NCBI GenBank assembly: GCA_963677505.2
Contig: CAXXWB010000045.1
Coordinates: forward strand, 6,870 to 70,869
Origin: an uncultured Acidaminobacter sp.
Lineage (GTDB): Bacteria > Bacillota > Clostridia > Peptostreptococcales > Acidaminobacteraceae
DNA: 64,000 bases
Reading direction: 5' to 3'
In this document: piece after piece, positions 649 to 26,359 of the stretch
How the letters are laid out: each line of letters starts with the position of its first letter
Numbering within the stretch: position 1 is the first letter of the stretch
Notes under the pieces: generated by a model
What the model was told of the DNA's origin: nothing
The model's database searches: none
What the model saw: only the letters and a program-made list of their open reading frames with translations
Position numbers and translations under genes: made by a program

Positions 649-701
649 ATAATAAACACATGGAATAAAATGCTTATAAAAACAATAAAAAGAAAACCGT
701 C

Positions 702-826
702 GTATAACTCCGAACTTACGTCATTGCCTATTGTCACGCCTTTTGCGGAGAACCGTTCAAAAGTCCCGCCAACTTGCCGCTGTGGCGTCAAGCACGTCAA
801 CGTCGTAAGTTCGTCTTTCGTTATAC
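702..826 (+). repeat. attC site 1 (125-nt class)
   Basis: R'' gtataac 702-708; arms cgaacttacg/cgtaagttcg; enlarged central hairpin ccttttgcggagaaccgttcaaaagt; R' gttatac 820-826. Confidence 0.9.
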
Positions 827-851
827 GCAATAATTCTGCACGTCAATTTGT

Positions 852-1105
852 AAAAGAAAAAAGGCAACCGCAAGAGCTGCCTTATTGAAGATATAAAATT
901 TGTTCAGCCCCGTAGTAGTGGCTAAGGTTGAATTAGTTGCTCTGTTTGGTTTCTTAAATTTAATCGAAACAAACGGTAATCGTATGTCAAAGCCATCGAA
1001 CCATTTAACAAGTGCTTTCATAGGCACCGCCCCCTTTTTCACCAATTTTACTACGGATGCTTTCGCATTTGGCTTACTCGCCTCGGGGAAACGAAGCTGA
1101 ACAAA
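852..1105 (-). ncRNA. Candidate structured RNA (unclassified) ending in an intrinsic terminator, inside cassette 2
   Basis: 10-bp closing helix 899-908/1096-1105; second helix 910-917/1049-1056; minus-strand hairpins ATGC-GAAA-GCAT (1057-1068) and GGC-GAGTAA-GCC (1071-1082); hairpin 944-953/966-974. On the minus strand a stem (861-866/878-883) is followed by a U-tract (852-860). The region looks more G+C-rich than its AT-rich flanks. Confidence 0.4.
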
Positions 1106-1229
1106 TTTAATATCTAAGAGTAACTATAGCATAATAAATTCAAAAATCACAATTTAAATAGAAATTAGGATTTTTGAATTTACATTCAATGTTAAAGTAC
1201 TAATTATAGTCTTAAGGGAGCTGTAAATA

Positions 1230-1601
1230 ATGGACAAACTGCGTTGGGCATATAAATATGTAGAACTGTTTCCAGAACATAAGGGACGTTTGGATGAGCA
1301 TATTAAAGATTATGGAGAGTTACTCGGGCATGTTTTCTTTGGTGATCTCATAAACGAACGACTTTATAATTTAATAAAATATGAAAGAGAGCTAGAAACT
1401 GTAGAAATATTATTTGATTTTATTAATGAAATGTTTAAGTATGGTGATGACGATTGCAAAAATATAATTGAAGTAACTATATTGGAATACTTAGGTGATG
1501 ATGACAAGGTACTAAAACGCAGTAAAAAATACTTAAGTCCTGAACTTATTGCTTTGTCGGATATAGTTGAGGAGTCACTGGGAAGGAAACATTTTGAGTA
1601 A
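1230..1601 (+). CDS. Hypothetical protein (123 aa, acidic, probably all-alpha)
   Basis: ORF with AAGGGAG RBS upstream, followed by an attC. Identical copy at 2161-2532. Confidence 0.7.
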   Translation: MDKLRWAYKYVELFPEHKGRLDEHIKDYGELLGHVFFGDLINERLYNLIKYERELETVEILFDFINEMFKYGDDDCKNIIEVTILEYLGDDDKVLKRSKKYLSPELIALSDIVEESLGRKHFE

Positions 1602-1639
1602 TAATATATGTGGAATTAATTAATGATACGAATTACTGC

Positions 1640-1758
1640 GTATAACTCCGAACTTACGCCATTGCCTATTGTCACGTCTTTTGCGGATGCAAAAGCCCCG
1701 CCAACTTGTCGCTGTGGCGCCAAGCACGTCAACGTCGTAAGTTCGTCTTTCGTTATAC
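1640..1758 (+). repeat. attC site 2 (119 nt)
   Basis: R'' gtataac, R' gttatac; conserved arms and central hairpin cttttgcg..gcaaaag. Confidence 0.9.
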
Positions 1759-1783
1759 GCAATAATTCTGCACGTCAATTTGT

Positions 1784-2036
1784 AAAAGAAAAAAGGCAAC
1801 CGCAAGAGCTGCCTTATTGAAGATATAAAATTTGTTCAGCCCCGTAGTAGTGGCTAAGGTTGAATTAGTTGCTCTGTTTGGTTTCTTAAATTTAATCGAA
1901 ACAAACGGTAATCGTATGTCAAAGCCATCGAACCATTTAACAAGTGCTTTCATAGGCACCGCCCCCTTTTTCACCAATTTTACTACGGATGCTTTCGCAT
2001 TTGGCTTACTCGCCTCGGGGAACGAAGCTGAACAAA
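1784..2036 (-). ncRNA. Candidate structured RNA, second copy (cassette 3)
   Basis: Duplicate of 852-1105. The only difference seen is a 1-nt indel (gggaaacg vs gggaacg) in an unpaired bulge. Confidence 0.4.
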
Positions 2037-2160
2037 TTTAATATCTAAGAGTAACTATAGCATAATAAATTCAAAAATCACAATTTAAATAGAAATTAGG
2101 ATTTTTGAATTTACATTCAATGTTAAAGTACTAATTATAGTCTTAAGGGAGCTGTAAATA

Positions 2161-2532
2161 ATGGACAAACTGCGTTGGGCATATAAATATGTAGAACTGT
2201 TTCCAGAACATAAGGGACGTTTGGATGAGCATATTAAAGATTATGGAGAGTTACTCGGGCATGTTTTCTTTGGTGATCTCATAAACGAACGACTTTATAA
2301 TTTAATAAAATATGAAAGAGAGCTAGAAACTGTAGAAATATTATTTGATTTTATTAATGAAATGTTTAAGTATGGTGATGACGATTGCAAAAATATAATT
2401 GAAGTAACTATATTGGAATACTTAGGTGATGATGACAAGGTACTAAAACGCAGTAAAAAATACTTAAGTCCTGAACTTATTGCTTTGTCGGATATAGTTG
2501 AGGAGTCACTGGGAAGGAAACATTTTGAGTAA
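2161..2532 (+). CDS. Hypothetical protein (123 aa), duplicate of 1230-1601
   Basis: Translation identical to 1230-1601. Confidence 0.7.
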   Translation: MDKLRWAYKYVELFPEHKGRLDEHIKDYGELLGHVFFGDLINERLYNLIKYERELETVEILFDFINEMFKYGDDDCKNIIEVTILEYLGDDDKVLKRSKKYLSPELIALSDIVEESLGRKHFE

Positions 2533-2570
2533 TAATATATGTGGAATTAATTAATGATACGAATTACTGC

Positions 2571-2689
2571 GTATAACTCCGAACTTACGCCATTGCCTAT
2601 TGTCACGTCTTTTGCGGATGCAAAAGCCCCGCCAACTTGTCGCTGTGGCGCCAAGCACGGCAACGTCGTCAGTTCGTCTTTCGTTATGT
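2571..2689 (+). repeat. attC site 3 (119 nt)
   Basis: R'' gtataac, R' gttatgt. Confidence 0.9.
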
Positions 2690-2749
2690 GAAATTGATTT
2701 AATATACATATTTTGAAGTATATTTAAAAACCAATTCGGAGGAAATCAA

Positions 2750-3571
2750 ATGCCAAATGGTAATATTTTGAGAACTTTTGATCAAAATTTGAAAAATAAG
2801 TTTAATGAGCGCTGTTTTATTTATGATAAATATAGACCTGAATATGTAGATGAGTTGTTTAAAGATATTTTTCAAATGAAAATGTTAAATCATAATAGTA
2901 AAGCATTAGAAATTGGAATAGGAACAGGACAAGCAACCAAACCTATTCTTGAAACGGGATGTAGTCTATTGGCGTTGGAAATTGGCGATCAGTTGGCGAG
3001 TTTTACTAAAGAGAAATTTCAGTCTTATGGTAACTTTACTGTTGAGAACAGTTCATTTGAAGATAGCAGCTTAGATGATAATAGCTATGATTTAGTATTT
3101 TCAGCATCTGCATTTCATTGGATTCCAGAAGAGTTTGGTTACTCTAAAGTTTTTAGAATTTTAAAACCCAATGGCGTGTTTGCCCGTTTTGCAATGCATC
3201 CTTATCCAGCAAAGGATAATATAGAGCTTTTTGAAGCAATACAACAATGTTATAAGAAATATTTACCAGAATCAAAACCAGGTCTTGAATATACAGAAGA
3301 AAAGGCTAGAGTAAGAGCAGAATTAAGCATTAAATATGGTTTTATTGACTCAAAATACTACGTTTACAATAGAATTAGGACTCATAATGCTCAAGAGTAT
3401 GTCAAGTTACTTGAAACTATGCACGACCATATAGCTTTGGATAGTAATTTGCGAGAAATGCTGTTTAATGACATTGAGGCTGCTATTGTAAAATATGGAA
3501 ATCAAATCAATGTCTATGATACAATTGACCTTCAGTTGGCTAGAAAAGCAAATATAGAAAATAATGATTAA
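2750..3571 (+). CDS. Class I SAM-dependent methyltransferase
   Basis: 273 aa. Motif I LEIGIGTGQAT; post-I and later motifs DLVFSASAFHWI and LKPNGVF. GGAGG RBS. Confidence 0.8.
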   Translation: MPNGNILRTFDQNLKNKFNERCFIYDKYRPEYVDELFKDIFQMKMLNHNSKALEIGIGTGQATKPILETGCSLLALEIGDQLASFTKEKFQSYGNFTVENSSFEDSSLDDNSYDLVFSASAFHWIPEEFGYSKVFRILKPNGVFARFAMHPYPAKDNIELFEAIQQCYKKYLPESKPGLEYTEEKARVRAELSIKYGFIDSKYYVYNRIRTHNAQEYVKLLETMHDHIALDSNLREMLFNDIEAAIVKYGNQINVYDTIDLQLARKANIENND

Positions 3572-3593
3572 TATATGATAAAAAATCAACTTC

Positions 3594-3712
3594 ACATAAC
3601 TCCGAACTTACGTCATTGCCTATTGTCATGTCTTTTGCGCATGCAAAAGCCCCGCCAACTTGCCGCTGTGGCGTCAAGCACGGCAACGACGTAAGTTCGT
3701 CTTTCGTTATAC
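3594..3712 (+). repeat. attC site 4 (119 nt)
   Basis: R'' acataac (complement of the preceding R' gttatgt), R' gttatac. Confidence 0.9.
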
Positions 3713-3797
3713 GAAATATTTCTCTACAATGTCGTAAAAATATAAATGTAATTTTATTAAAAATTGTAAAAGTACATCATCATGAGAGGGTAGCAGA

Positions 3798-4430: not shown

Positions 4431-4468
4431 AAACAAATTTTGGTAAATTATATTACAAGAAATACTTC

Positions 4469-4587
4469 GTATAACTCCGAACTTACGCCATTGCCTATTG
4501 TCATGTCTTTTGCGCATGCAAAAGCCCCGCCAACTTGCCGCTGAGGCGTCAAGCACGTCAACGTCGTAAGTTCGTCTTTCGTTATAT
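4469..4587 (+). repeat. attC site 5 (119 nt)
   Basis: R'' gtataac, R' gttatat. Confidence 0.9.
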
Positions 4588-4798
4588 GCAATAGCTCTAG
4601 CCTGAAATTGGTAATTACTATTAGAACTTATTCTAAGCAACAAAAGGCTCAAATCCATGCTGACAGGCTCTTGATAACTGTATTTGTTTTTAAAAAGTGT
4701 TATATAATATTTCTGTGTATCTTACAGACTAAAAATTACCTCACCAAAGTTTGGCTGAGAAACAGTTTTTCAATATAAGTGTTTAATTTATGTAAGAA

Positions 4799-4933
4799 AT
4801 GGAAATGTTGGTTTGGATTCAATCAGACTTGAATAAAATAAAGTTAATGAATTTCAGAACTGTAGTAGGAAGGTCAAAGGCAGCTTTTAAAAACCCAACC
4901 TATTTAGTAATTTGTAAAGGCATGAAGAGTTGA
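4799..4933 (+). CDS. Possible 44-aa micro-ORF in an otherwise ORF-less cassette
   Basis: ATG..TGA, translation MEMLVWIQSDLNKIKLMNFRTVVGRSKAAFKNPTYLVICKGMKS. Weak RBS. It is the only +strand ORF in cassette 4582-5057. Confidence 0.2.
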   Translation: MEMLVWIQSDLNKIKLMNFRTVVGRSKAAFKNPTYLVICKGMKS

Positions 4934-4944
4934 AGAGCAACTGC

Positions 4945-5063
4945 ATATAACTCCGAACTTACGTCATTGCCTATTGTCATGTCTTTTGCGCATGCAAAAG
5001 CCCCGCCAACTTGTCGCTGCGGCGCCAAGCACGGCACCGACGTAAGTTCGTCTTTCGTTAGGT
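4945..5063 (+). repeat. attC site 6 (119 nt)
   Basis: R'' atataac, R' gttaggt. Confidence 0.9.
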
Positions 5064-5096
5064 GACATATTTTACACGTAAAATTGGAGTGTTTAG

Positions 5097-6095
5097 ATGG
5101 ATAAGAATAAAATAAGAAATATACTATGTAAATATTTAAGAATTGCCATAGAATATTTCTACTCTTCATTTATCAAAATAGTAAAAAGTGCTTTCAATTG
5201 GATAAATATTAATTGGAAACAAGATAAGTATCTTAGAGTAAATATTGCATTCACTCTCATTTTGATGTTGATAGCAGTGTTTCTTAATGTGAATAATGAA
5301 ATATACTGGCTTATTCTTAAATTATTATTTTGTGCAACCAATATTATTGTTTCAATACTTTGTTTCCTGAGTCTCGTAAAATTGAAAAGTAAATTAAGCA
5401 CAGAACATCATTATTACAACATGTATGAATGGTATAGTTTGCAAATTCTAAGCATGAGTGCATATATAATTATATTAAACAGTATCTATCCAAACTCAGT
5501 TGATTTTTTTGGATTGTTAATTGGTATATTCTTTTATTTAACTTTTTATTCATATGGAAGATATTTTGTCGCTAAATGGATAAAAAAATGGTGGACATTT
5601 GCGTTACTCTTTTTTGCGATGCCTCTTATTGCTTTGCTTATAGGAACTATAGGATCTGGAATATTCGCTAGTTTATTTAATATTGATTTGATACAATTTG
5701 ATCCTTTTTTAGGATTTATAGTTATAGTGACTACAATATTGTTAATTAATTACATTATAGCTTCTACTCCGGAATCTCTTGTGGGTGAGGTAAAAGTTGC
5801 AATTTATCTTATTTTGGCAATATCGTCAGCAATTTCATATTGTTTTTTTGCACCTGAATACTTAACCAATTTTTTAGTCGAAAATATAAAATTATTAGAA
5901 TATACAAATAAAAATGAAATAATAGAAGTTATTGATAGTATTCTAAAATGGGTCACTCTGCCTTATTCAATTGGTTCTGTATTTGGATGTTTCACAATTG
6001 AGTTAGTTGAAAGAAATAACAGAATTTTTAATGCTAATAAAATGCAAGATGAAGATAAACAGAGTATTAGCATTCAAGATGAGAGTATAAACTAA
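5097..6095 (+). CDS. Multi-pass integral membrane protein (332 aa), function unknown
   Basis: Long ORF with many hydrophobic helices, directly between attC 6 and attC 7. Confidence 0.75.
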   Translation: MDKNKIRNILCKYLRIAIEYFYSSFIKIVKSAFNWININWKQDKYLRVNIAFTLILMLIAVFLNVNNEIYWLILKLLFCATNIIVSILCFLSLVKLKSKLSTEHHYYNMYEWYSLQILSMSAYIIILNSIYPNSVDFFGLLIGIFFYLTFYSYGRYFVAKWIKKWWTFALLFFAMPLIALLIGTIGSGIFASLFNIDLIQFDPFLGFIVIVTTILLINYIIASTPESLVGEVKVAIYLILAISSAISYCFFAPEYLTNFLVENIKLLEYTNKNEIIEVIDSILKWVTLPYSIGSVFGCFTIELVERNNRIFNANKMQDEDKQSISIQDESIN

Positions 6096-6115
6096 TTTGG
6101 AATATAAAATACGTC

Positions 6116-6234
6116 ACCTAACTCCGAACTTACGCCATTGCCTATTGTCATGTCTTTTGCGCATGCAAAAGCCCCGCCAACTTGCCGCTAGGGCGTCAAG
6201 CACGGCAACGTCGTAAGTTCGTCTTTCGTTATAC
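6116..6234 (+). repeat. attC site 7 (119 nt)
   Basis: R'' acctaac (complement of gttaggt), R' gttatac. Confidence 0.9.
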
Positions 6235-6337
6235 GCAATAATTCTGATAGCATAATTGTATTTAGAATTTCATAGAATCATTTAAAACCAAAACCACTGA
6301 GATTGCTCCTCAAAATTTAAAATGGAGGCATAGCAAA

Positions 6338-6634: not shown

Positions 6635-6913
6635 TGATATAAGACAGAAAATGCAAATTGCATGTATTATTATTCCAATCGTTAGATTGCTATATTACAT
6701 ATTGTGGAAAATATTGATGAAGCCAGTAAACATATAAAGCCTTCAAAAATATCAGCGAGTAGGGTGCTATAATTGATAAGTATTTAACTTAAATAATCTA
6801 TTTGTTTAAGTTAATACTAAACTCTAATTTGTTTACCAATAAAAGCATTTGCAAATAATGAAGAATTAATAAAATCAAAATCGTAAAGGCATAATCCGTG
6901 AACGAATTACAGC

Positions 6914-7032
6914 GTATAACTCCGAACTTACGCCATTGCCTATTGTCACGTCTTTTGCGCATGCAAAAGCCCCGCCAACTTGTCGCTGAAGCGCCAAGCA
7001 CGGCAACGTCGTAAGTTCGTCTTTCGTTATAC
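6914..7032 (+). repeat. attC site 8 (119 nt)
   Basis: R'' gtataac, R' gttatac. Confidence 0.9.
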
Positions 7033-7074
7033 GAAAGACTTTCCCAAGAGGAATCATGATTGGAGGTACTTTTT

Positions 7075-7449: not shown

Positions 7450-7610
7450 GTCATAGATTAATACATGAAATAGAAATAATTAAAGTGGGATTGTGATAAT
7501 TATATTTTTGAGATACTGGCTGACCCGAGGTAGTTTTGCGAGAAAGTTATAACAAATAAGGTGATCTTTTATCTCAATACATTTTAAGGTCAAGTCCTTC
7601 GTATAACTCC

Positions 7611-7729
7611 GAACTTACGCCATTGCCTATTGTCACGTCTTTTGCGCATGCAAAAGCCCCGCCAACTTGCCGCTGAGGCGTCAAGCACGGCAACGTCGTA
7701 AGTTCGTCTTTCGTTAAGCGAAATTTTTT
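7611..7729 (+). repeat. attC site 9 (119 nt)
   Basis: R'' gtataac, R' gttaagc. Confidence 0.9.
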
Positions 7730-7788
7730 CAATGTACGTTAATTTAATTTCGACGGAAAAATCAATGCATAAAAGGGCGTGATATCAG

Positions 7789-8313: not shown

Positions 8314-8382
8314 AATCCAAAGACTTAAAAGCAATAACCGTTCGAAAAAGAGAAAGACTAGATAATTGAGTTCAAAAACTTC

Positions 8383-8507
8383 GCTTAACTCCGAACTTAC
8401 GTCATTGCCTATTGTCACGCCTTTTGCGAAAAATCGTGCAAAAGCCCCGCCAACTTGTCGCTGTGGCGCCAAGCACGGCAACGACGTAAGTTCGTCTTTC
8501 GTTATAT
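8383..8507 (+). repeat. attC site 10 (125-nt class)
   Basis: R'' gcttaac (complement of gttaagc), R' gttatat; enlarged loop gcgaaaaatcgtgc. Confidence 0.9.
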
Positions 8508-8603
8508 GACATTCTTTGCTACATACATATTTTAACTTTATATGAATATATTTAGAATTCAAGGTCAAAAGAAAAAAGAAAATTATATTAGGGAGATAAT
8601 CAT

Positions 8604-9011: not shown

Positions 9012-9050
9012 GCAAAAGAATAAAACTCAATATCAAAAGCAAAGAACGTC

Positions 9051-9169
9051 ATATAACTCCGAACTTACGCCATTGCCTATTGTCATGTCTTTTGCGCATG
9101 CAAAAGCCCCGCCAACTTGCCGCTGAAGCGTCAAGCACGGCAACGTCGTAAGTTCGTCTTTCGTTATAC
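9051..9169 (+). repeat. attC site 11 (119 nt)
   Basis: R'' atataac, R' gttatac. Confidence 0.9.
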
Positions 9170-9274
9170 GCAAGGTTTCTGCGACAGAATTGGTATCAGT
9201 ATTTAGGTTTATTTTAGATTAAAGATTAAAAACCAAAGATAAAAATAATAATTGACATATAAGGAGGCATTTTT

Positions 9275-9847: not shown

Positions 9848-9894
9848 AAAAGCAGATAAATCAAGGACTAAAGAGAAATAAGACGAAACCCTGC

Positions 9895-10013
9895 GTATAA
9901 CTCCGAACTTACGCCATTGCCTATTGTCACGCCTTTTGCGCATGCAAAAGCCCCGCCAACTTGTCGCTGCGGCGCCAAGCACGGCAACGACGTAAGTTCG
10001 TCTTTCGTTATGT
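9895..10013 (+). repeat. attC site 12 (119 nt)
   Basis: R'' gtataac, R' gttatgt. Confidence 0.9.
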
Positions 10014-10049
10014 GACATGCATATAAAATAATTATTTGAGAGGAGAATA

Positions 10050-10813: not shown

Positions 10814-10842
10814 TAATGAACTTTTAATTAAATATGCACGTC

Positions 10843-10961
10843 ACATAACTCCGAACTTACGTCATTGCCTATTGTCATGTCTTTTGCGCATGCAAAAGCC
10901 CCGCCAACTTGCCGCTATGGCGTCAAGCACGGCAACGACGTAAGTTCGTCTTTCGTTATGC
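10843..10961 (+). repeat. attC site 13 (119 nt)
   Basis: R'' acataac, R' gttatgc. Confidence 0.9.
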
Positions 10962-11141
10962 GACAACTGGATTCTAGGAGTTTGGCTTTAGCTATAAAGT
11001 TTTTAATTCAGCTTTTAAACCCATAAAAACAACCAATAGTAAACAATGAATAGTAATAGACATCATTTCTCAATACATAAGTAGAACAAATTTAGACAGC
11101 ACACTTTGGTCGCAACATAAATTATGAGGCGCATATTATAA

Positions 11142-11531: not shown

Positions 11532-11552
11532 TATAATGGTTCACCAGTCATC

Positions 11553-11677
11553 GCATAACTCCGAACTTATGCCATTGCCTATTGTCATGCCTTTTGCTGA
11601 AGAGCTTGCAAAAGTCCCGCCAACTTGCCGCTGAGGCGTCAAGCACGGCAACGTCGTAAGTTCGTCTTTCGTTATAT
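11553..11677 (+). repeat. attC site 14 (125-nt class)
   Basis: R'' gcataac, R' gttatat; enlarged loop gctgaagagcttgc. Confidence 0.9.
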
Positions 11678-11824
11678 GCCATTCCTTTTGCAGACTGTGT
11701 TATCTTTAAATTAATTCAAATGATAATTAAAATCAAATCTCTTGAATATCACTAAGGCAGATACAGAAACAATTGTAAAACAAGACGTATAAAAATCATA
11801 AATTCAAACTGAGGGAAACTAATT

Positions 11825-12758: not shown

Positions 12759-12768
12759 AAGAAACGGC

Positions 12769-12887
12769 ATATAACTCCGAACTTACGTCATTGCCTATTG
12801 TCATGTCTTTTGCGTATGCAAAAGCCCCGCCAACTTGTCGCTGAGGCGCCAAGCACGGCAACGACGTAAGTTCGTCTTTCGTTAAGC
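12769..12887 (+). repeat. attC site 15 (119 nt)
   Basis: R'' atataac, R' gttaagc. Confidence 0.9.
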
Positions 12888-12919
12888 GAAAGACAAAAAT
12901 AATTAAGTGGAGATAGAAT

Positions 12920-14029: not shown

Positions 14030-14039
14030 TTTGTCCTTC

Positions 14040-14158
14040 GCTTAACTCCGAACTTACGCCATTGCCTATTGTCACGTCTTTTGCGCATGCAAAAGCCCCG
14101 CCAACTTGCCGCTGCGGCGTCAAGCACGGCAACGTCGTCAGTTCGTCTTTCGTTATGT
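14040..14158 (+). repeat. attC site 16 (119 nt)
   Basis: R'' gcttaac, R' gttatgt. Confidence 0.9.
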
Positions 14159-14277
14159 GACATTTTAGCAGCGACACATGGATTTGTCAAAAAAAGTGCA
14201 GTCGGTAAACTCACTAAATTGATAAAGGGGTATAACCCCATTGAATTACCTTGAGTTCATTTAGACCACTTTTCATT

Positions 14278-15150
14278 TTATGCTGCTGTACTACTTGCTA
14301 AACTTTTCATACGATAGACAAATGGCGGAAGCCCTTGTGGATTTGATGTATAGACCCGCTGTTTATTGTAATAAATCATAATGTAACGGAAGATCACTGA
14401 CTTGACCTGGTGCATCGGGAAATGCGCTGTTCCTATTCTGTAGAGTTTCTCTTTTTTCAGAGTGGCAAAGAAGCTCTCCATCCTTGCATTATCATAGCAT
14501 CGACCTGTGCCACTCATACTTTGTATGGCTCCATATTGAGCCAAGGTCTTTCGATAATCAGAGCTGGTAAACTGACTTCCTCGGTCTGAGTGAAGAATCA
14601 TGCCCTTGGCATTCTGTGACTTGCAAGCGTTTTCAAAGGCTTGAATACACAGTTCTTTACGCATGTTGTTGTCCATGGATAGACCAACAATCTCACCATT
14701 ATAGCAGTCAAGGATTGGTGCAACATAGAGTTTACCATCAGAACACTGCACTTCAGTGATGTCTGTTAGCCACTTCTGATTTGGTGCAGTTGCTGCAAAG
14801 TCCCTTTGGATGATATTTTCACTCTTTTGCGCTGCAGCGTCTTCACGAGTGATACCATTTGGGTGACGTTTACGCTTTTTAAGCATCTGATATTTGCGCA
14901 TAGTCCGATAAATGGTACTATAGCTCACCTGTTGGTCCAACTGAAGTAGCCTTAAATAAATGCGTCTAGCGCCGTAATTATCATTATCGGGATGTTGACT
15001 TAGAACCGACTTTATTTGACCCAGAAGAAGGCTGTCTCGTTTAATCTTGTCTGTATGTTTAAGGCTTCTAAAATAACCTGACTCACTGACTTTTAGCGCT
15101 ATACAAAGTTCGTGAATGGAGTATTTTAAGCACCTTTGACTGATAAACAT
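14278..15150 (-). CDS. IS3-family transposase OrfB (DDE integrase-like catalytic domain)
   Basis: 290 aa from the first ATG. Motifs ..NQKWLTDITEV.. and HSDRGSQFTS. Confidence 0.85.
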   Translation of the reverse strand: MFISQRCLKYSIHELCIALKVSESGYFRSLKHTDKIKRDSLLLGQIKSVLSQHPDNDNYGARRIYLRLLQLDQQVSYSTIYRTMRKYQMLKKRKRHPNGITREDAAAQKSENIIQRDFAATAPNQKWLTDITEVQCSDGKLYVAPILDCYNGEIVGLSMDNNMRKELCIQAFENACKSQNAKGMILHSDRGSQFTSSDYRKTLAQYGAIQSMSGTGRCYDNARMESFFATLKKEKLYRIGTAHFPMHQVKSVIFRYIMIYYNKQRVYTSNPQGLPPFVYRMKSLASSTAA

Positions 15151-15167
15151 GTATAAAAGCTGTGGTT

Positions 15168-15455
15168 TTACTTCTTCCGGTCTTTTGCGAAAAAACCCAA
15201 TGCATCCTTTAGAATTTCATTGGCCTTGCGAAGTTCAGCATTTTCCTTTTCAAGCTCCATCTCTCGACGGCTTCTAGGATCAATGCGTAGGTTACCACTG
15301 CCAACATAGGCGAGTTCGCCGTAATGGGTACGTTTTTGACGCCAATTGGACAAGGTATGATACGGAACACCAAGTTGTTTTGCAGCTGTAGCCAGTCCAA
15401 TTTCATCAGATAGTTTTACGGCTTCAATTTTAAATGCGGTATCATAAGTTTTCAT
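15168..15455 (-). CDS. IS3-family transposase OrfA (HTH)
   Basis: 95 aa. ..LGVPYHTLSNWRQK.. followed by a leucine-zipper-like ELEKENAELRKANEILKDA. Confidence 0.85.
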   Translation of the reverse strand: MKTYDTAFKIEAVKLSDEIGLATAAKQLGVPYHTLSNWRQKRTHYGELAYVGSGNLRIDPRSRREMELEKENAELRKANEILKDALGFFAKDRKK

Positions 15456-15717
15456 TTCGAGTCCTCACTTTCATAGATATGGTTATAGTCATCATATCGC
15501 ATTTAGTGAGTTTGGTGACTGCACTTTTATGATATCATTCCACATTGTTATTACTTTATTATGGCATCTAAATTTATACATAAAGGTAAGTTCTAATAAC
15601 TGGAATCGACATATTACTTTTATTAGTATGTAAGAACTGAAAAAATAGGAGTAATTATATTGAGTAATTCTGGCAACCACACAAACAATATTTAGTATAA
15701 AAACACGAGGATAAAAT

Positions 15718-16146
15718 ATGTCTTTTGTACGAGAAAAGGTTCCGCAAGATCAATGGGAGTATTTCAATTCACTAAATATTAAGTATGAAGGGAAGCTTAG
15801 AACTGCTAATGAGTATTCGATATGGGTAATTGACCGAGAACGTGAAATTATTTTTACAAATACTTGCTTAAGCGGAAGAGACTATGGAGACAGCTATATT
15901 TTGATTTGGGGAGAAGAGCGTATTTACATTTATGTTGAGGCTCATACTGAAAGACAGACTGAATACGCTGCAAAATACTGTCATTGGGATATACAATGTA
16001 TTATTGCACCCATGTCATTAAAAGATAGACAGGCCGAACTTATAAAACTTATTCGTCAGATAGCCGAAATACACTATGATCCTCGAAGTACCTCGACTTT
16101 TGTCATTGACAATATTGCGGAACCTCAATTTAAAGAAAGTGTGTAG
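15718..16146 (+). CDS. Hypothetical protein (142 aa)
   Basis: ORF with GAGGA RBS in the cassette that carries IS3 copy 1. Confidence 0.65.
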   Translation: MSFVREKVPQDQWEYFNSLNIKYEGKLRTANEYSIWVIDREREIIFTNTCLSGRDYGDSYILIWGEERIYIYVEAHTERQTEYAAKYCHWDIQCIIAPMSLKDRQAELIKLIRQIAEIHYDPRSTSTFVIDNIAEPQFKESV

Positions 16147-16206
16147 TCAGATTAATGGGGTTAAAACCATTGAAGTTTTTAAAGTGAAGAAATTCCAAGA
16201 AACGTC

Positions 16207-16325
16207 GTATAACTCCGAACTTACGTCATTGCCTATTGTCATGTCTTTTGCGCATGCAAAAGCCCCGCCAACTTGTCGCTGAGGCGCCAAGCACGGCAAC
16301 GACGTAAGTTCGTCTTTCGTTAGAC
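16207..16325 (+). repeat. attC site 17 (119 nt)
   Basis: R'' gtataac, R' gttagac. Confidence 0.9.
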
Positions 16326-16398
16326 GAAATTGACTTACTCAGCATATTATCTTCAAATTATGAAAAAAAGCAAAAAAACTCAAAGGATGATTTTAATT

Positions 16399-17164: not shown

Positions 17165-17199
17165 ATAGATTCATTAGAATATATTGTAAAGTCAACTTC

Positions 17200-17324
17200 G
17201 TCTAACTCCGAACTTACGCCATTGCCTATTGTCACGCCTTTTGCGGTGTAGCTTGCAAAAGTCCCGCCAACTTGTCGCTGCGGCGCCAAGCACGGCAACG
17301 TCGTCAGTTCGTCTTTCGTTAAGC
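17200..17324 (+). repeat. attC site 18 (125-nt class)
   Basis: R'' gtctaac (complement of gttagac), R' gttaagc. Confidence 0.9.
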
Positions 17325-17438
17325 GAAAGTCTTTATACTTGCATATCTCATTGTAATAAAGAGATATTGTTCAAGGATCAAATCCAATACCATTGAATTT
17401 AGCATTAATTATATTTATTGATTATATAGGGTGAAATT

Positions 17439-18150: not shown

Positions 18151-18183
18151 AAAGTAGAAGTGGCTGTAAAAATAAAGCCCTTC

Positions 18184-18228
18184 GCTTAACTTCGAATTCA
18201 CGAAATTTGTAATAGAATTGTCCGCACT
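18184..18228 (+). repeat. Truncated attC (5' part only)
   Basis: gcttaacttcgaattcacg..attgtcc matches the R''/L'' half of the consensus (gcttaactccgaacttacg..attgtca). Its upstream flank aaagcccttcgcttaac is complementary to the start of this cassette (gttaagcgaaagtcttt). No L'/R' half follows. Confidence 0.6.
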
Positions 18229-18645: not shown

Positions 18646-19368
18646 AAACCCCCGGTTCTACCGGGGGTTCCAAAGAGCTTTAGCTTTGCCCAAAAAGAAT
18701 ACCTCCTTTTGTTAGAATAATGGTGGTTCGCCAACCGCTATTTTCTAATAAAAGGAGGATCCGAAATTGGATAAGAACAGTTTAGCACACACAACTTGGA
18801 ATTGCAAATATCACGTAGTGTTTGCACCAAAGTATAGACGACAAGCGATTTATGGAAAAATTAAGACAGATGTAGGAAAAATACTGAGGAAACTGTGTGA
18901 ACAAAAGGGCGTAAAAATTCTAGAAGCGACGGCTTGTTCTGACCATGTTCATATGGTTATCGAAATACCGCCAAAGCATAGTGTTTCGAGTATTATGGGA
19001 GATCTAAAAGGAAAAAGTTCTTTGATGATATTTGATAAGCACGCAAACTTGAAATATAAGTACGGAAATCGTCATTTTTGGTGTAGAGGTTACTATGTAG
19101 ATACAGTAGGAAGAAATGAAAAAGCAATAAGAGAATATGTGAAAAATCAACTCCAAGAGGATATAGCTAATGATCAAATAAGTATCATGGAATATGTTGA
19201 CCCGTTTACGGGTGAGCAAGCAGCGAAAAAGGGCAAAAAATAAAAGCTGCTTTAGCAGCAGCCAGTAAACGCAAGCGTTTGGCGAACCAAATCAATGAGC
19301 CTTAAGGCTCACGCGGGCAACATGCCCTTATAGGGCGGAACAAACTACCCGCTAAGCGGGTAGTTTTG
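18646..19368 (+). mobile_element. IS200/IS605-family element (tnpA only); ends approximate
   Basis: Y1 transposase gene flanked by subterminal hairpins aaacccccggttctaccgggggtt (left) and aaactacccgctaagcgggtagtttt (right). Confidence 0.65.
18767..19243 (+). CDS. tnpA: IS200/IS605 family Y1 (HUH) transposase TnpA
   Basis: 158 aa. HUH motif SDHVHMVIE; catalytic-Tyr region FWCRGYYVDTVG. TTG start after AGGAGG. Confidence 0.9.
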   Translation: MDKNSLAHTTWNCKYHVVFAPKYRRQAIYGKIKTDVGKILRKLCEQKGVKILEATACSDHVHMVIEIPPKHSVSSIMGDLKGKSSLMIFDKHANLKYKYGNRHFWCRGYYVDTVGRNEKAIREYVKNQLQEDIANDQISIMEYVDPFTGEQAAKKGKK

Positions 19369-19727: not shown

Positions 19728-19776
19728 GGACAAAAAACGTAAAAAGTTGAAATACATAATCGAGAGACCAAACTTC

Positions 19777-19895
19777 GCTTAACTCCGAACTTACGCCATT
19801 GCCTATTGTCACGTCTTTTGCGCATGCAAAAGCCCCGCCAACTTGCCGCTGCGGCGTCAAGCACGGCAATGACGTAAGTTCGTCTTTCGTTATAC
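19777..19895 (+). repeat. attC site 19 (119 nt)
   Basis: R'' gcttaac, R' gttatac. Confidence 0.9.
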
Positions 19896-20047
19896 GAAAG
19901 ACTTATTCGATTTACAGCATTTTAAATAAAAAAAATGCGTAATCAAAATCGAAGAAATAGTATTTATCTAGGTTGATATATCTAATTTTGATCAAGTCAA
20001 AATAGCAAGAATAATTGAGTAGTCTTTTGGAGGAATTATTGAGATAT

Positions 20048-20654: not shown

Positions 20655-20670
20655 TGGCTCAAAGTCCTTC

Positions 20671-20789
20671 GTATAACTCCGAACTTACGTCATTGCCTAT
20701 TGTCATGTCTTTTGCGCATGCAAAAGCCCCGCCAACTTGGCGTTGCGACGCCAAGCACGGCAACGACGTAAGTTCGTCTTTCGTTATGC
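20671..20789 (+). repeat. attC site 20 (119 nt)
   Basis: R'' gtataac, R' gttatgc. Confidence 0.9.
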
Positions 20790-20820
20790 GAAATCATTTA
20801 TATTTCAAGGGGGAATTTAA

Positions 20821-21824: not shown

Positions 21825-21843
21825 GATAAATTTAAATGACTTC

Positions 21844-21962
21844 GCATAACTCCGAACTTACGTCATTGCCTATTGTCATGTCTTTTGCGCATGCAAAAGC
21901 CCCGCCAACTTGCCGCTGCGGCGTCAAGCACGGCAACGACGTAAGTTCGTCTTTCGTTATGT
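21844..21962 (+). repeat. attC site 21 (119 nt)
   Basis: R'' gcataac, R' gttatgt. Confidence 0.9.
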
Positions 21963-22130
21963 GAAAGCCTCCAAGAAATATGGTTGTAAGATTATTTATC
22001 AAATATTTAATTAGAAGTAGTTAAGACAACATTACTATCTAATTCTTTAATAAATATTTATATAGCTCATATTGTAAACGCTATTTAAAATTATTGTTGA
22101 AGATTAGGTCTTAAAATCACTGGAGGAAAA

Positions 22131-22877: not shown

Positions 22878-22941
22878 TAAAAAGATCGATTTATAATTAG
22901 ATATAATAGAAAATTATTGTTGAGTTTGATTTACGGCCTTC

Positions 22942-23066
22942 ACATAACTCCGAACTTACGCCATTGCCTATTGTCATGCCTTTTGCGGTGGTACTTGCAA
23001 AAGTCCCGCCAACTTGCCGCTAGGGCGTCAAGCACGGCAACGTCGTCAGTTCGTCTTTCGTTATAC
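22942..23066 (+). repeat. attC site 22 (125-nt class)
   Basis: R'' acataac, R' gttatac. Confidence 0.9.
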
Positions 23067-23213
23067 GACAGTTTTCTTTGCAAAATTTTGTTATTTGAAT
23101 TACATTTTTTTGATTTAAAGAAAAATCAAAATCTGATTAAACATGATATATACTCGTTGCAATTGCGGCAAACATAACAATAATTTCCATGCATTGGGTA
23201 TAAGTAATTCTTA

Positions 23214-23236
23214 CACACACGGCTCTCAATTTACGA
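23214..23236 (+). repeat. Possible decayed attC 3' remnant upstream of TA copy 2
   Basis: cacacggctctcaatttacgac resembles caagcacggc..tctttcgttatacgac with an internal deletion. The window start (tctcattatgcgac) shows the same remnant before TA copy 1. Confidence 0.25.
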
Positions 23237-23299
23237 CAGTTTAAACCCTTTTCAATACCAACTGTCATCGGTTATAATAAATAGTAAGAGGTGATTTGT

Positions 23300-23473
23300 A
23301 TGACACTTGTAGAGAAATTTGTAAAAGAGTTTGAAGAATTATCAACTGACAGACAAGCGGAAGTAATAGATTTTATTGAGTTCCTCAAAGAGAAAGAGAA
23401 CAAAAGAATTGAAGGATTAATGGATCTAATTATTGATGAAAATAAGGAAGCTTTATTGGAGCTTGCCAAATGA
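23300..23473 (+). CDS. Antitoxin of Phd/Doc-type module, copy 2
   Basis: Translation identical to 77-250. Confidence 0.7.
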   Translation: MTLVEKFVKEFEELSTDRQAEVIDFIEFLKEKENKRIEGLMDLIIDENKEALLELAK

Positions 23474-23850
23474 AAAATCTAGATATCAAGCAAGTTGTAG
23501 TATTTCATGAGAAAATCATCGAAAAGACTGGTGGTAGCCACGGAGTCAAAAATTATGGCTTAGTAGAAAGCGCACTTCATAGAGGTGAGGCAAGTTTTTC
23601 AGGAGAGGATTTTTATCCAAGTTTAGAATCAAAAATATCTGCTATAACCCATAGCTTAATTAGTAATCATGGATTTGTTGACGGGAATAAAAGAATTGGT
23701 GTATCCGTAATGCTGATGCTTTTGAAAATCAATTCACTTGAAATTCAATACAGCCAAATAGAATTGGTCAATTTAGGATTATCAGTGGCTTCAGGCGAAA
23801 TGGATGAAAAGCAAATTGAATCATGGATAAATGCAAGAAAAGTAAAGTAA
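23470..23850 (+). CDS. doc: Fic/Doc family toxin, copy 2
   Basis: 126 aa with HGFVDGNKRIG. It has 4 aa differences from copy 1, all in the C-terminal third. Confidence 0.85.
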   Translation: MKNLDIKQVVVFHEKIIEKTGGSHGVKNYGLVESALHRGEASFSGEDFYPSLESKISAITHSLISNHGFVDGNKRIGVSVMLMLLKINSLEIQYSQIELVNLGLSVASGEMDEKQIESWINARKVK

Positions 23851-23924
23851 GGGGAGAAATCCTCTTTTTTTATAATAAATATATGGAATATAATGCTTAT
23901 TAAAACAATAAAAAGAAAACCATC

Positions 23925-24043
23925 GTATAACTCCGAACTTACGCCATTGCCTATTGTCACGTCTTTTGCGCATGCAAAAGCCCCGCCAACTTGCCGCTGG
24001 GGCGTCAAGCACGGCAACGACGTAAGTTCGTCTTTCGTTATAC
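23925..24043 (+). repeat. attC site 23 (119 nt)
   Basis: R'' gtataac, R' gttatac. Confidence 0.9.
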
Positions 24044-24162
24044 GAAAGTTCCCAGATTGTGATTGGAATAGTCAAGAAAAGTGCAGTCTATAAACTCACT
24101 AAATTAATCAAGGTGGATAATCCTATTGAAATTGCTTGAGTTTATTTAATCGACAACAATAG

Positions 24163-25020
24163 TTATGCAGCTTGGGTCGTTACTAAACTTTTCATACGAT
24201 AGGCGTACGGTGACAAACCTTGTGGGTTTGATGTATAGATTCGCTGTTTGTTGTAATAAATCATGATGTAGCGAAAAATTACTGACTTGATCTGGTGCAT
24301 TGGGAAATGTTCTGTTCCTATTCGGTAGAGTTTCTCTTTTTTCAAAGTAGCAAAGAAGCTCTCCATCCTTGCATTATCATAGCATCTACCAGTGCCACTC
24401 ATACTTTGTGTGGCACCATACTGAGCCAAAGCATTTCGAAAGTCATAACTTGTATACTGACTTCCTCGATCTGAATGGAGAATCATAGCTTTTGCTCCTT
24501 GAGATTTGCATGCGTTCTCAAAGGCTTGAATACACAGTTCTTTACGCATGTTGTTATCCATTGATAGACCTACAATCTCGCCATTGAAACAGTCGAGAAT
24601 TGGTGCTATATAAAGTTTGCCATCGGAACACTGTACCTCAGTGATATCGGTCAACCACTTCTGATTCGGCGCTGTTGCCGTAAAGTCTCGCTGGATTATA
24701 TTTTCGCTCTTCTGTGCTGCAGCATCTTCACGGGTAATGCCATTAGGATGACGTTTCCGTTTTTAAGCATCTGATGTTTCTTCATGATTCGGTAAACTGT
24801 ACTGTAGCTTACGTTCTGATCCATCTGTAAAAGTCCTAAATGAACCCGCTGAACGCCATAGTTATCGTTGTCAGGATATTGACTTAGAATAGCTTTGATA
24901 TGACCCAGAAGAAGGTCTTCACGTTTAAGTCGGTCTGTACTAAAATAACCTGACTCGCTGACCCTAAGAGCTATACAAAGGTCATGAATGCTGTATTTTG
25001 AACGCCTTAGACTGATGAAA
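24163..25020 (-). pseudogene. IS3-family transposase OrfB, frameshifted
   Basis: The C-terminal 163 aa are intact. A 1-nt loss in the A-run (atgcttaaaaacgg vs atgcttaaaaagcg in copy 1) breaks the frame, and a 12-13-nt deletion lies near 24940. Confidence 0.75.
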
Positions 25021-25039
25021 ACGTATAAACGCTGGGGTT

Positions 25040-25327
25040 TTACTTCTTCCGGTCTTTTGCGAAAAAACCTAATGCATCCTTTAGAATTTCATTGGCCTTG
25101 CGGAGCTCAGCATTTTCTTTTTCAAGTTCAAGTTCGCGACGACTTCTAGGGTCTATACGCAAGTTTCCACTGCCAACATAGGCGAGCTCGCCGTAATGGG
25201 TACGTTTTTGGCGCCAGTTGGACAAGGTGTGATAGGGAACACCAAGTTGCTTTGCAGCTGTAGCAAGTCCAATTTCATCAGAAAGTTTGACTGCTTCAAT
25301 TTTAAAGGCGGTATCATAAGTTTTCAT
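25040..25327 (-). CDS. IS3-family transposase OrfA
   Basis: 95 aa, 1 aa different from copy 1. Confidence 0.85.
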   Translation of the reverse strand: MKTYDTAFKIEAVKLSDEIGLATAAKQLGVPYHTLSNWRQKRTHYGELAYVGSGNLRIDPRSRRELELEKENAELRKANEILKDALGFFAKDRKK

Positions 25328-25529
25328 GTCGAATCCTCACTTTCATACATATGGGTTATATTTATCATATCTTATTTAGTGAGTTTTGCGACTGCACTTT
25401 TATGATAGCATTCCAACTTTGGACTGTATATTTACTTTTAAAGATTAGAAGAAGATCAAATTCTATGAGCCATTATGAATGTGATTAATAATACATAAAT
25501 CATGCCTAGATTAAGAAAGTAGGACTAAT

Positions 25530-26025
25530 ATGAAATTAAAAAAACTAGACCAATGCAGTGAAGCTTCATACATATATTACTGTGATGCTTTTAAAGAGGC
25601 TCATGAGATGCCTTTTTCTAGCAACTTAATGAACCTAGATTATAAAACATGGATTAATGAAAGTAAAAAGTTAGAAGATAGGATGCAACTGCCAAGTGGT
25701 TATGTTCCTTCTCATACATTTTTCTTAGTGGACGAGAGTAAACACTTGCTGGGAAATGTAAGCATTAGAACAGAATTAAATGACTATTTAAGTAAGTACG
25801 GCGGTAATATTGGATATGTGGTTTCTCCTGAAGAGAGAGGCAGAAAATATGGGAAGAAACTACTAGAACTAGCACTTGAAGAAGCAAAAAAAACTTGGGC
25901 TAAAAGAAGTACTACTAACATGTGATAAATCGAATATAGCATCTTCGAAAATAATCACGGGAAATGGCGGAACATTAGATTCAGAAGATATGGTTGAAGG
26001 TGTGGAGATTGAACGCTATTTGATT
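25530..26025 (+). pseudogene. GNAT family acetyltransferase with a frameshift in an A8 run
   Basis: ..GNIGYVVSPEERGRKYGKKLLELALEEAKK then the frame changes at gcaaaaaaaactt. The shifted frame continues LGLKEVLLTCDKSNIASSKIITGNGG..IERYLIKL. Paralogous to 28601-29133. Confidence 0.6.
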
Positions 26026-26106
26026 AAGTTATAGAACCGAGAGGCTTAGTTGAAGGTAAAACTAGAAGAAATATAGATTTTAGAATGAGTGGTATCGAAT
26101 ACCGTC

Positions 26107-26231
26107 GTATAACTCCGAACTTACGCCATTGCCTATTGTCACGCCTTTTGCGGAGAACCGTGCAAAAGCCCCGCCAACTTGCCGCTGAAGCGTCAAGCAC
26201 GGCAACGTGGTCAGTTCGTCTTTCGTTATGC
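26107..26231 (+). repeat. attC site 24 (125-nt class), last site of the array
   Basis: R'' gtataac, R' gttatgc. No further copies of the repeat occur downstream. Confidence 0.9.
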
Positions 26232-26359
26232 GCCATATTAACAATCCATTCCAGATTATAGAAGCAAATATATATTGATTATTTACAATATCGATGTCAA
26301 ATTGATAATATATTGTATAAATGTTATAATGTGAGATAAAATTTACAGGAGGCGTTATT

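Follow-up and report, generated by a model that had tools for sequence, protein, structure and literature searches.

The cassettes of an integron-type array in an uncultured Acidaminobacter sp. (GCA_963677505.2) carry at their two ends the halves of a 16–19-nt helix in which one position, the eleventh, is an invariant mismatch. The array lies in the stretch of DNA analyzed here, positions 6,870 to 70,869 of contig CAXXWB010000045.1 (64,000 nt in total, hereafter the window). Positions are counted from the G of the GTT triplet that opens each cassette (the R' side), and the plus and minus strands denote the top (coding-sense) strand and the bottom strand, respectively, the latter being the one predicted to fold. 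At position 11, an A on the R' side always faces a C on the R'' side of the cassette's own attC, which gives a G·T wobble on the folded bottom strand. The explanation that we favor, and to which we assign about an even chance, is that positions 2–12 constitute an 11-bp Xer-type binding arm bearing a mark present only on the bottom strand, with positions 13–17 acting as a clamp that holds this arm closed.

The plus strand of the window contains 25 attC sites between 706 and 26227, of which 24 are complete and one, at 18188, is truncated (Table 1). Complete sites measure 111 or 117 nt from AAC to GTT, and each repeat shows the anatomy of integron attC sites, ending in RYYYAAC on the left and opening with GTTRRRY on the right. 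Inverted AAC...GTT triplets terminate the palindrome in all 24 complete sites of the window and in 31 sites of the contig. The repeats are spaced by 0.4–2.1 kb, usually with one plus-strand open reading frame (ORF) per interval. Seven further sites lie on the contig upstream of the window, such that the array comprises at least 32 sites and the window its distal 25, while the 5' end of the contig falls within a cassette, 6.9 kb upstream of the window, leaving the array head unassembled. The attC cores are 92–100% identical across the array; the cassette bodies are mutually unrelated except for three duplicate pairs and one pair bearing an insertion sequence (IS). An Rfam search of the attC sites returned no match, and the other contigs of the assembly hold no further copies of this attC family. 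The window holds the distal part of a chromosomal, integron-type cassette array. Formally, the array contig is a CALIN (a cluster of attC sites lacking an integron integrase), defined as two or more attC sites without an integron-integrase gene nearby, but since its 5' end falls within a cassette, this status is probably a product of the assembly.

Pairing between cassette ends was assessed by taking the 30 nt up to and including the AAC of a cassette's own attC, in reverse complement, and comparing them with the first 30 nt of that cassette. Per-position identity of these cognate ends is 0.83–1.00 up to position 16, 0.70 at position 17 and 0.50 at position 18, after which it falls to background. 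The median uninterrupted run is 16 and the stem 16–19 nt, whereas the two flanks of one attC in the array, like non-cognate pairs of ends, match only at background level with runs of about 5–6. A prior reading of the same DNA, made from sequence only, had proposed that complementarity runs 10–12 nt past the 7-bp R box. The stem does continue well beyond 7 bp, with an extension of 9–10 nt (up to 13) rather than a uniform 10–12, and the three pairings quoted as examples (8501 with 9037–9057, 5057 with 6104–6122 and 16319 with 17188–17206) read as described.

Statistical support was obtained from a non-redundant set of 25 cassettes, from which the duplicates and two IS-disrupted cassettes had been removed. 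Positions 12–17 are paired in 134 of 150 cells, compared to 63.4 ± 5.8 for permuted partners (z = 12), and positions 18–22 of the same 25 cassettes show no excess over permuted partners. The covariation score is 0.483, against 0.151 ± 0.016 for shuffled ends (none of 500 reached 0.483) and 0.08–0.13 for registers slid by 1–3. All four Watson–Crick pair types occur at each of positions 13–16, so the proposal that the outer nucleotides are cassette-specific and covary is borne out there; positions 8–12 are not free, in that position 8 is always G:C, only A or C occurs at positions 9–10 and G or T predominates at position 12, with all four bases found at positions 13–14. Because the cassette bodies are unrelated, shared ancestry of whole cassettes does not explain the pairing.

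In a correction to the sequence-only reading, the two cassettes bearing IS3-type insertions (14152–16213 and 24037–26113, about 2.06 kb each) possess non-cognate ends. The two insertions are related, with 82% identity over 1.37 kb, and both start 27 nt after the G of R', just beyond the end of the long stem. The non-cognate ends suggest an IS-linked rearrangement. A related IS copy is found about 700 nt downstream of an attC (L032 1773–2170; L numbers denote the loci compared) in G001, a metagenome-assembled genome (MAG) of an uncultured Peptostreptococcaceae of the same genus.

The crossover point was located by comparing shared cassettes. Two metagenome contigs (L034 and L035) share a 1.48-kb cassette of the window's attC family whose identity starts exactly at the TT, after different upstream bases, and R' positions 5 and beyond follow the downstream cassette. 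Exact duplicate cassettes (including cassettes 6 and 11) share the downstream attC along with the body, and not the upstream one. Exchange therefore occurs at G|TT, and a cassette consists of a body plus its downstream site. Since this crossover places the opening of the following cassette opposite each R'', the long stem is unable to form locally in the array, where the R arm of a resident site has only about 4–8 matched bp; the long helix forms only in an excised circle or by long-range pairing across the cassette body. In the circular form, the bottom strand has a mean predicted folding energy of –46.2 kcal/mol, compared with –38.1 kcal/mol in the array form, a gain of about 8 kcal/mol for the free cassette, and the long helix would favor insertion over excision and keep large arrays stable.

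A separate kind of event is recorded at 820–2685, where a 932-bp cassette is tandemly duplicated. The middle attC of the duplicate (1644–1754) is a hybrid whose 5' part is that of the downstream attC (GCGGATGC) and whose 3' part is that of the upstream one (GCACGTCAACGTCGTAAG). The cassette was therefore duplicated through unequal homologous exchange inside attC sites rather than through site-specific exchange at G|TT.

Against this background of pairing, position 11 is mismatched in one constant manner, with A on the R' side in 31 of 31 cases and C on the R'' side in 32 of 32. This invariance had been reported in the sequence-only reading, as had three exceptions at the neighboring position 10 (A·A in the cassette starting at 6228, C/A in those at 10955 and 23060), and both descriptions are accurate. 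Elsewhere, the same A versus C occurs in 15 of 15 hand-curated cassettes from eight other loci, which represent at least four unrelated attC families and include a Bacteroidales array; position 11 is never a Watson–Crick pair in these cassettes, whose ends were partly curated by eye. Solo cassettes of the window's attC family (in a Bacteroidales MAG, G001 and metagenome contigs) have starts that pair perfectly over positions 2–17, with A at position 11. Five cassettes of the Bacteroidales array with other attC sites likewise display A versus C at position 11, four of them with an additional A·A at position 10, and arrays beside homologous recombinases, some with long G+C-rich attC sites, show the same wobble within stems of 15–19 nt.

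A generic scan of the Bacteroidales genome for AAC..GTT hairpins by energy proved too noisy and was replaced by hand curation and by a masked scan, in which positions 10–11 were ignored when cognate pairs were called (six false positives in 140 kb of control sequence). Applied to arrays beside homologous recombinases, the masked scan returned the wobble type at position 11 in 10 of 11 pairs; the eleventh, located within an ORF, agrees with the false-positive rate measured for the scan. Across the stems of the other loci, non-Watson–Crick positions are of the G·T-on-bottom type in 26 instances and of another type in one. This excess is expected under selection on the bottom-strand fold, because transitions that leave G·T are tolerated and those that leave A·C are not, but such selection does not account for a position that is never Watson–Crick.

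Several irregularities were recorded in the G+C-rich arrays. An interval at L060 14651–17236 that contains a group II intron reverse transcriptase gene has cognate ends with wobble-type mismatches at positions 7 and 10, not 11; either its register is shifted by one or the pair is due to chance. Most cassettes of the L059 and L060 families conserve their outer stem positions 16–19 (such as ATGC, ACGC and GTGC) as well as the three bases that follow, which read AAA in R' and CCC in the reverse complement of R''; in these families the outer stem is thus specific to the family in part, and not to the cassette. A matching irregularity 11 bp into the L arm, seen by eye in the window's family, is absent from the L059 attC and was dropped.

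Candidates for the cognate recombinase come from relatives. In the array's own assembly, nothing scores above the TIGR02249 cut-off for the integron integrase IntI, and the contig, on which the array head is unassembled, carries no tyrosine recombinase; an IntI (TIGR02249) search of three relatives also gave nothing over the cut-off. In G001, however, YitT-like and RNase T-like genes precede a gene for a 367-residue tyrosine recombinase, which is 257 nt away from the end of its contig. The protein is composed of Phage_int_SAM_4 and Phage_integrase domains and passes the NF040815 model (229 bits, cut-off 220), while falling short of the TIGR02249 IntI model (177 bits, cut-off 265). The latter is matched in two pieces; about 13 residues stand in place of model positions 178–231, the region of the IntI-specific domain. 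Among solved structures, XerC-like/XerA are closest, then XerD, with IntI4 matching only over the C-terminal 80 residues. The recombinases of the relatives are therefore members of the Xer/XerA family by these matches and lack the additional domain of about 35 residues near patch III that is a trait of integron integrases.

Homologues at 75% and 59% identity share the G001 protein's neighborhood (selD, selA, selB, a two-component pair, a Germane-domain gene, YitT and RNase T) and are followed, about 190 nt downstream, by an attI-like sequence (...ACCCGCAATGCGCA..TTAGAGA G|TTA...). The first cassette after this sequence carries an attC of the window's family in L053 and a diverged form in L055, both with A versus C at position 11. 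More distant homologues (about 41–43% identity) are followed by co-oriented cassettes with cognate ends, with small-ORF arrays after the recombinase in L059–L062 and one cassette before the contig end in L058. The recombinase gene is co-oriented with what follows in all eight homologue loci, and a first cassette or cassette start precedes the contig end in L040, L053, L055 and L058. The family comprises more than 7000 proteins at E ≤ 1e-20, some of which are named "site-specific tyrosine recombinase/integron integrase" by NCBI. The possibility that the G001 protein is an IS91-associated or Xer-like bystander was rejected on the grounds that its homologues have attI-like sites and the window's attC family directly downstream. 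Thus, where the sequence-only reading had assumed a classical integron, the recombinase beside attI in relatives is Xer-like and devoid of the IntI-specific domain.

What follows the final attC of an integron is attI's displaced right half. The 12 nt that come next after attC 25, GTTATGCGCCAT, agree over G plus 11 nt with the right-hand side of the attI-like site of G001, and the two sequences part at position 13. By this resemblance, GTTATGCGCCAT is probably a displaced right arm of attI, and the extent of the match hints that the arm consists of G plus 11 nt. The attI-like regions at L040 2440–2560, L053 11240–11300 and L055 11220–11290 contain one or two copies of GCAATGCG 20–60 nt before G|TT; judged by eye, the right arm seems to recur on the left side of the attI-like sequence as an imperfect inverted copy (AATGCGCACAT / TTATGCGCCAT), the two flanking a 7–8-nt spacer.

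Folding was examined by nearest-neighbor prediction with DNA parameters. The consensus bottom-strand fold of 25 circular-form sites displays a 17-bp R helix that includes the G·T pair, a spacer of 6 nt opposite 2 nt and a 9–10-bp L helix, followed by a 1x1 mismatch, a further helix and a branched tip. Across the predicted folds, the spacer spans 6–7 nt on the cleaved arm and 2–3 nt on the other; by eye, other attC families of the system have spacers of 3–4 versus 6–7 nt. By this prediction, bottom strands are more stable than top strands in 29 of 29 sites, with a mean margin of 12.8 kcal/mol, of which the core between AAC and GTT supplies 11.0 kcal/mol. The bottom strand has 3.2 G·T pairs, compared with 0.28 for the top strand; when G·T pairs are forbidden, a strand difference of 6.8 kcal/mol persists. 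Top-strand GC and AT skews are both negative (–0.17 and –0.13).

In the model that we favor, the R arm would not be a 7-bp box but a crossover point, G|TT, succeeded by nine further semi-conserved positions. By analogy with Xer sites and from the conserved letters, positions 2–12 may form an 11-bp recombinase-binding arm with the consensus TTA-YRY-G-MM-A-K, beyond which roughly five base pairs, positions 13–17, would be free in sequence and yet obliged to pair. Three signs point to a boundary at 12/13: conservation stops at position 12, the identity between GTTATGCGCCAT and the attI-like site covers G plus 11 nt, and five of eight class 1 cassettes have runs of 12–13 nt. Given that each arm's 3' half moves along with the following cassette, the 16–19-bp helix would be rebuilt only upon excision, when a cassette start is joined to its own attC. 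Position 11 would then be T·G on the bottom strand, A·C in a top-strand hairpin and A:T or G:C in any double-stranded copy, so that the wobble, at the binding arm's outer edge, may be a mark that only the bottom-strand hairpin bears. The outer, cassette-specific pairs would serve as a clamp that keeps the wobble and position 12 inside the helix. Pairing probabilities predicted for the bottom strand illustrate this role: with 12-nt arms they are 0.39 at position 11 and 0.11 at position 12, rising to 0.87 and 0.90 with 15-nt arms and to 0.91 and 0.95 with 17-nt arms, with no change at 20 nt. The plateau coincides with the observed stem length; in this calculation, a wobble one step from the helix end frays, and a few more pairs of any sequence are predicted to hold it closed. 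Together with the strongly asymmetric spacer, the wobble would probably take over the choice of site and strand without extrahelical bases or an IntI-specific domain. Because the recombinase of relatives lacks that domain and no extrahelical bases are predicted, the fixed wobble is likelier to be a recognition mark than an energy term.

A number of observations count against this model. The 11-bp footprint is deduced from conserved positions and by comparison with Xer arms and class 1 stems, and the class 1 control behind part of that comparison comprises eight cassettes. Neither IntI nor a recombinase of the XerA/Xer-like type is present in the array's own assembly, and the link to such an enzyme comes from relatives; no tyrosine recombinase lies near the Bacteroidales array (L031), despite its having the same wobble. 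The finding that neither minimum free energy nor consensus folds contain single-base bulges, that is, extrahelical bases, derives from nearest-neighbor prediction and not from a structure. Making position 11 Watson–Crick shifts the strand difference by only about 1 kcal/mol, and any role of this position in strand choice must therefore be by recognition. Finally, the invariance of position 11 could stem from separate constraints on the two arms.

The last point can be developed into an alternative in which the mismatch is incidental and pairing irrelevant: the A of R' would be needed in the double-stranded right arm of attI after insertion, and the C of R'' for some other contact. In accord with it, the first cassettes next to attI that can be paired with their own attC (L053, L055 and L058) all have an A at position 11, every cassette retains the R' arm consensus, and the energetic effect of the position is small. 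We nevertheless regard this account as unlikely. Every other position from 4 to 16 is selected to pair, the non-pairing is always of the bottom-strand G·T type, and two independent constraints would hardly yield an invariant base on each side in attC families that are unrelated; moreover, we know of no second role for the R'' arm.

Quite improbable, in our estimation, is the version put forward in the sequence-only reading, by which the long arm and wobble act thermodynamically, making the bottom hairpin the stabler one so that this strand is chosen. The direction of the predicted asymmetry agrees with that version at every site, and so does the excess of bottom-strand G·T pairs, a principle published for class 1 attC sites (PMC5027507). 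Its magnitude resides elsewhere, though: most of the difference comes from the AAC–GTT core, position 11 is thermodynamically minor, the long arm stabilizes both strands, and a purely energetic device needs no single fixed position.

A further alternative would have cognate arms acting within the array, the ends of a cassette pairing across its body of about 0.4–1.2 kb on single-stranded bottom strand, thereby joining neighboring attC sites, pre-forming the product site and promoting excision. The local R helix is at background complementarity, and a cognate partner 0.4–1.2 kb away offers 16–19 bp, but this scheme leaves the fixed wobble unexplained; compatible as it is with the recognition model, we give it little credence. 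Least probable is a frozen accident, in which a functionless ancestral A/C pair was copied along with similar attC cores by concerted evolution: core identity is high and homologous exchange between attC sites does occur (hybrid attC 2), yet the R' half lies outside the attC that travels with the cassette, the flanking positions 9–10 and 12–17 vary and covary, and the same wobble recurs in attC families of unrelated sequence and G+C content, in other Clostridia and the Bacteroidales array.

Table 1. Distal array part and its attC sites in the window (complete sites are 111 or 117 nt from AAC to GTT; "quoted" marks examples given in the sequence-only reading)
Feature	Position	Strand	Remarks
Distal array part, 25 attC sites	692..26241	+	attC repeats
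attC 1 (117 nt)	692..836	+	R'' 692-708, C at 698; R' 820-836, A at 830; R' opens next cassette
attC 2 (111 nt)	1630..1768	+	R'' 1630-1646; R' 1752-1768; hybrid of attC 3 (5' part) and attC 1 (3' part)
attC 3	2561..2699	+	R'' 2561-2577; R' 2683-2699
attC 4	3584..3722	+	R'' 3584-3600; R' 3706-3722
attC 5	4459..4597	+	R'' 4459-4475; R' 4581-4597
attC 6	4935..5073	+	R'' 4935-4951; R' 5057-5073 (quoted)
attC 7	6106..6244	+	R'' 6106-6122, pairs with 5057-5073; R' 6228-6244, position 10 A·A
attC 8	6904..7042	+	R'' 6904-6920; R' 7026-7042
attC 9	7591..7729	+	R'' 7591-7607; R' 7713-7729
attC 10 (117 nt)	8373..8517	+	R'' 8373-8389; R' 8501-8517 (quoted)
attC 11	9041..9179	+	R'' 9041-9057, pairs with 8501-8517 over 20 nt; R' 9163-9179
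attC 12	9885..10023	+	R'' 9885-9901; R' 10007-10023
attC 13	10833..10971	+	R'' 10833-10849; R' 10955-10971, position 10 C/A, also wobble type
attC 14 (117 nt)	11543..11687	+	R'' 11543-11559; R' 11671-11687
attC 15	12759..12897	+	R'' 12759-12775; R' 12881-12897
attC 16	14030..14168	+	R'' 14030-14046; R' 14152-14168; next cassette: IS3-type insertion, non-cognate ends
attC 17	16197..16335	+	R'' 16197-16213; R' 16319-16335 (quoted)
attC 18 (117 nt)	17190..17334	+	R'' 17190-17206, pairs with 16319-16335; R' 17318-17334
attC 19, truncated	18174..18228	+	only R''/L'' half remains; R'' 18174-18190 still pairs with cassette start 17318
attC 20	19767..19905	+	R'' 19767-19783; R' 19889-19905
attC 21	20661..20799	+	R'' 20661-20677; R' 20783-20799
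attC 22	21834..21972	+	R'' 21834-21850; R' 21956-21972
attC 23 (117 nt)	22932..23076	+	R'' 22932-22948; R' 23060-23076, position 10 C/A
attC 24	23915..24053	+	R'' 23915-23931; R' 24037-24053; next cassette: IS3-type insertion
attC 25 (117 nt), last site	26097..26241	+	followed by GTTATGCGCCAT (26225-26236)

Other features of the array and its surroundings were noted in passing. Half-sites at L032 3024, 4318 and 5910 (G001:C2) and at window 18188 preserve the R''/L'' part (AACTCCGAACTTACGCCATTGA...) and nothing more, giving way to unrelated sequence after it; the three successive congener half-sites are broken at nearly one point, which looks systematic and not like random decay. An Rfam match to STnc490 lies inside the array at 18647–18755 on the plus strand (63 bits, gathering score 56). 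A tRNA-Sec gene is located at 38688–38780 on the minus strand, 12 kb past the distal end of the array, and a selD-selA-selB cluster is found just upstream of the recombinase gene in relatives (L053/L055 1–5000); the array seems to be situated in a conserved selenocysteine-gene neighborhood.

Beyond the window, its attC family was encountered in Fusibacter sp. 3D3, G001, a Bacteroidales MAG and two metagenome contigs. These occurrences led us to reject an initial assignment of the array to the Treponema denticola integron, the paper on which makes no mention of long stems. Four loci were retrieved in the scan of genome contigs and two in that of metagenome contigs, and the family is rare in the genome and metagenome collections scanned. 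In the Bacteroidales MAG (L031; OY782180.1, G042:C1:888001-896000), the cassette at 4493–5270 possesses an attC of the window's family, 97% identical to the site at 9047–9166, and sits in a heterogeneous Bacteroidales array. This cassette implies exchange across phyla.

How ordinary the long R arm is can be gauged from a class 1 control of eight cassettes on four plasmids. The perfect cognate runs of dfrA5, aacA4, blaOXA-1, catB3, arr-3, aadA1, blaGES-24 and catB8 are 8, 12, 9, 13, 8, 4, 13 and 12 nt, respectively, with aadA1 reaching 12 if two wobble-type mismatches are allowed. In five of the eight, the "7-bp R box" is contained within a perfect 12–13-bp cognate helix, and a fixed mismatch at position 11 is absent from all eight. 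The family described here is thus not alone in pairing beyond the 7-mer. Pairing to about 12–13 nt is ordinary; a stem of 16–19 nt with an invariant wobble is not.

Like the classical attC sites recognized by IntI1 and VchIntIA, those of the array have inverted AAC and GTT triplets, belong to cassettes made of an ORF plus attC, recombine at G|TT and go with a cassette start complementary to their own R'' side. The more stable bottom strand, the heterogeneity of the arrays and the movement of cassettes between hosts are shared as well. The differences lie in the stem, which spans 8–13 nt without a fixed mismatch in class 1 and 16–19 nt with the position-11 G·T here, and in the spacer, where classical sites have 5–6 nt on each arm, along with two or three extrahelical bases (PMC5027507), and the present sites have 6–7 versus 2–3 nt and no predicted extrahelical bases. 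The recombinase of relatives, in addition, lacks the IntI-specific domain.

Regarding strand asymmetry, a survey of 263 class 1 attC sites counted 1.24 bottom-strand G:T mispairs versus 0.39 on the top strand, with folding lower by 2.1 kcal/mol, and a role for G:T in favoring bottom-strand folding and strand selectivity was proposed (Nivina et al. 2016, PMC5027507). The array follows the same G:T and purine-skew principle, with more bottom-strand G:T and negative top-strand skews. In class 1 sites the effect is statistical, whereas here it is larger on both counts (3.2 versus 0.28 and 12.8 kcal/mol), and one wobble is fixed outside the 7-mer in every cassette. The suggestion that such a device had gone undescribed accordingly applies to the fixed place outside the 7-mer, for which we found no description, and not to G:T favoring the bottom-strand fold. 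The features that set the array apart are the 16–19-nt stem, the fixed position-11 wobble and the Xer-like recombinase in relatives. Searches mostly outside subscription journals, which were largely uncovered, turned up no account of long cognate R arms with a fixed wobble or of integron-like arrays served by this recombinase family. Firmicutes were reported to lack complete integrons, and tyrosine recombinases near attC without the IntI C-terminal signature were not counted as IntI (Cury et al. 2016, PMC4889954); since surveys report no complete integrons in Firmicutes, arrays of the present kind would be filed as CALINs.

The nearest precedent for the proposed mechanism is attP(+) of CTX-phi, a folded single strand on which XerCD acts without a domain that reads extrahelical bases, the stem mimicking duplex binding arms (PMC4792948). 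The likeness consists of a Xer-type recombinase, here known from relatives, and a folded single-strand site. The difference is that CTX-phi has one phage site and borrows the host enzymes for dimer resolution at dif, while a dedicated recombinase gene beside an attI-like site and an array of many cassettes are found here. With Xer/dif and archaeal XerA, the system shares the recombinase family (NF040815; XerA and XerC-like structures) and a putative arm of 11 bp. The arm TTATGCGCCAT also resembles what we take to be the reverse complement of the XerC arm of Escherichia coli dif. However, dif is a single double-stranded chromosomal site, whereas the arm halves here lie far apart in the array (0.4–1.2 kb) and covary strongly, a departure from the double-stranded substrates of Xer enzymes that therefore requires a folded strand or cruciform.

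Site and strand choice in integrons are explained by extrahelical bases read by a domain unique to IntI. The arrays considered here are integron-like in their G|TT crossover, cognate ends and cross-phylum sharing, and have neither predicted extrahelical bases nor, in relatives, the IntI domain. A single invariant and easily mutated base pair provides a concrete candidate for a substitute signal, and the origin of integrons from Xer-type enzymes becomes a question open to simple experiment. More tentatively than for the arm and clamp, and as a possibility we consider less probable than its opposite, we suggest that a Xer-like recombinase devoid of the IntI domain could use the clamp-held G·T at position 11 (arm position 10) as its signal for recognizing folded sites and choosing the strand. 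Such arrays would then represent a second or ancestral solution to single-strand hairpin recombination, widespread in Clostridia and Bacteroidota and intermediate between Xer/dif and CTX-phi recombination on the one hand and classical integrons on the other.

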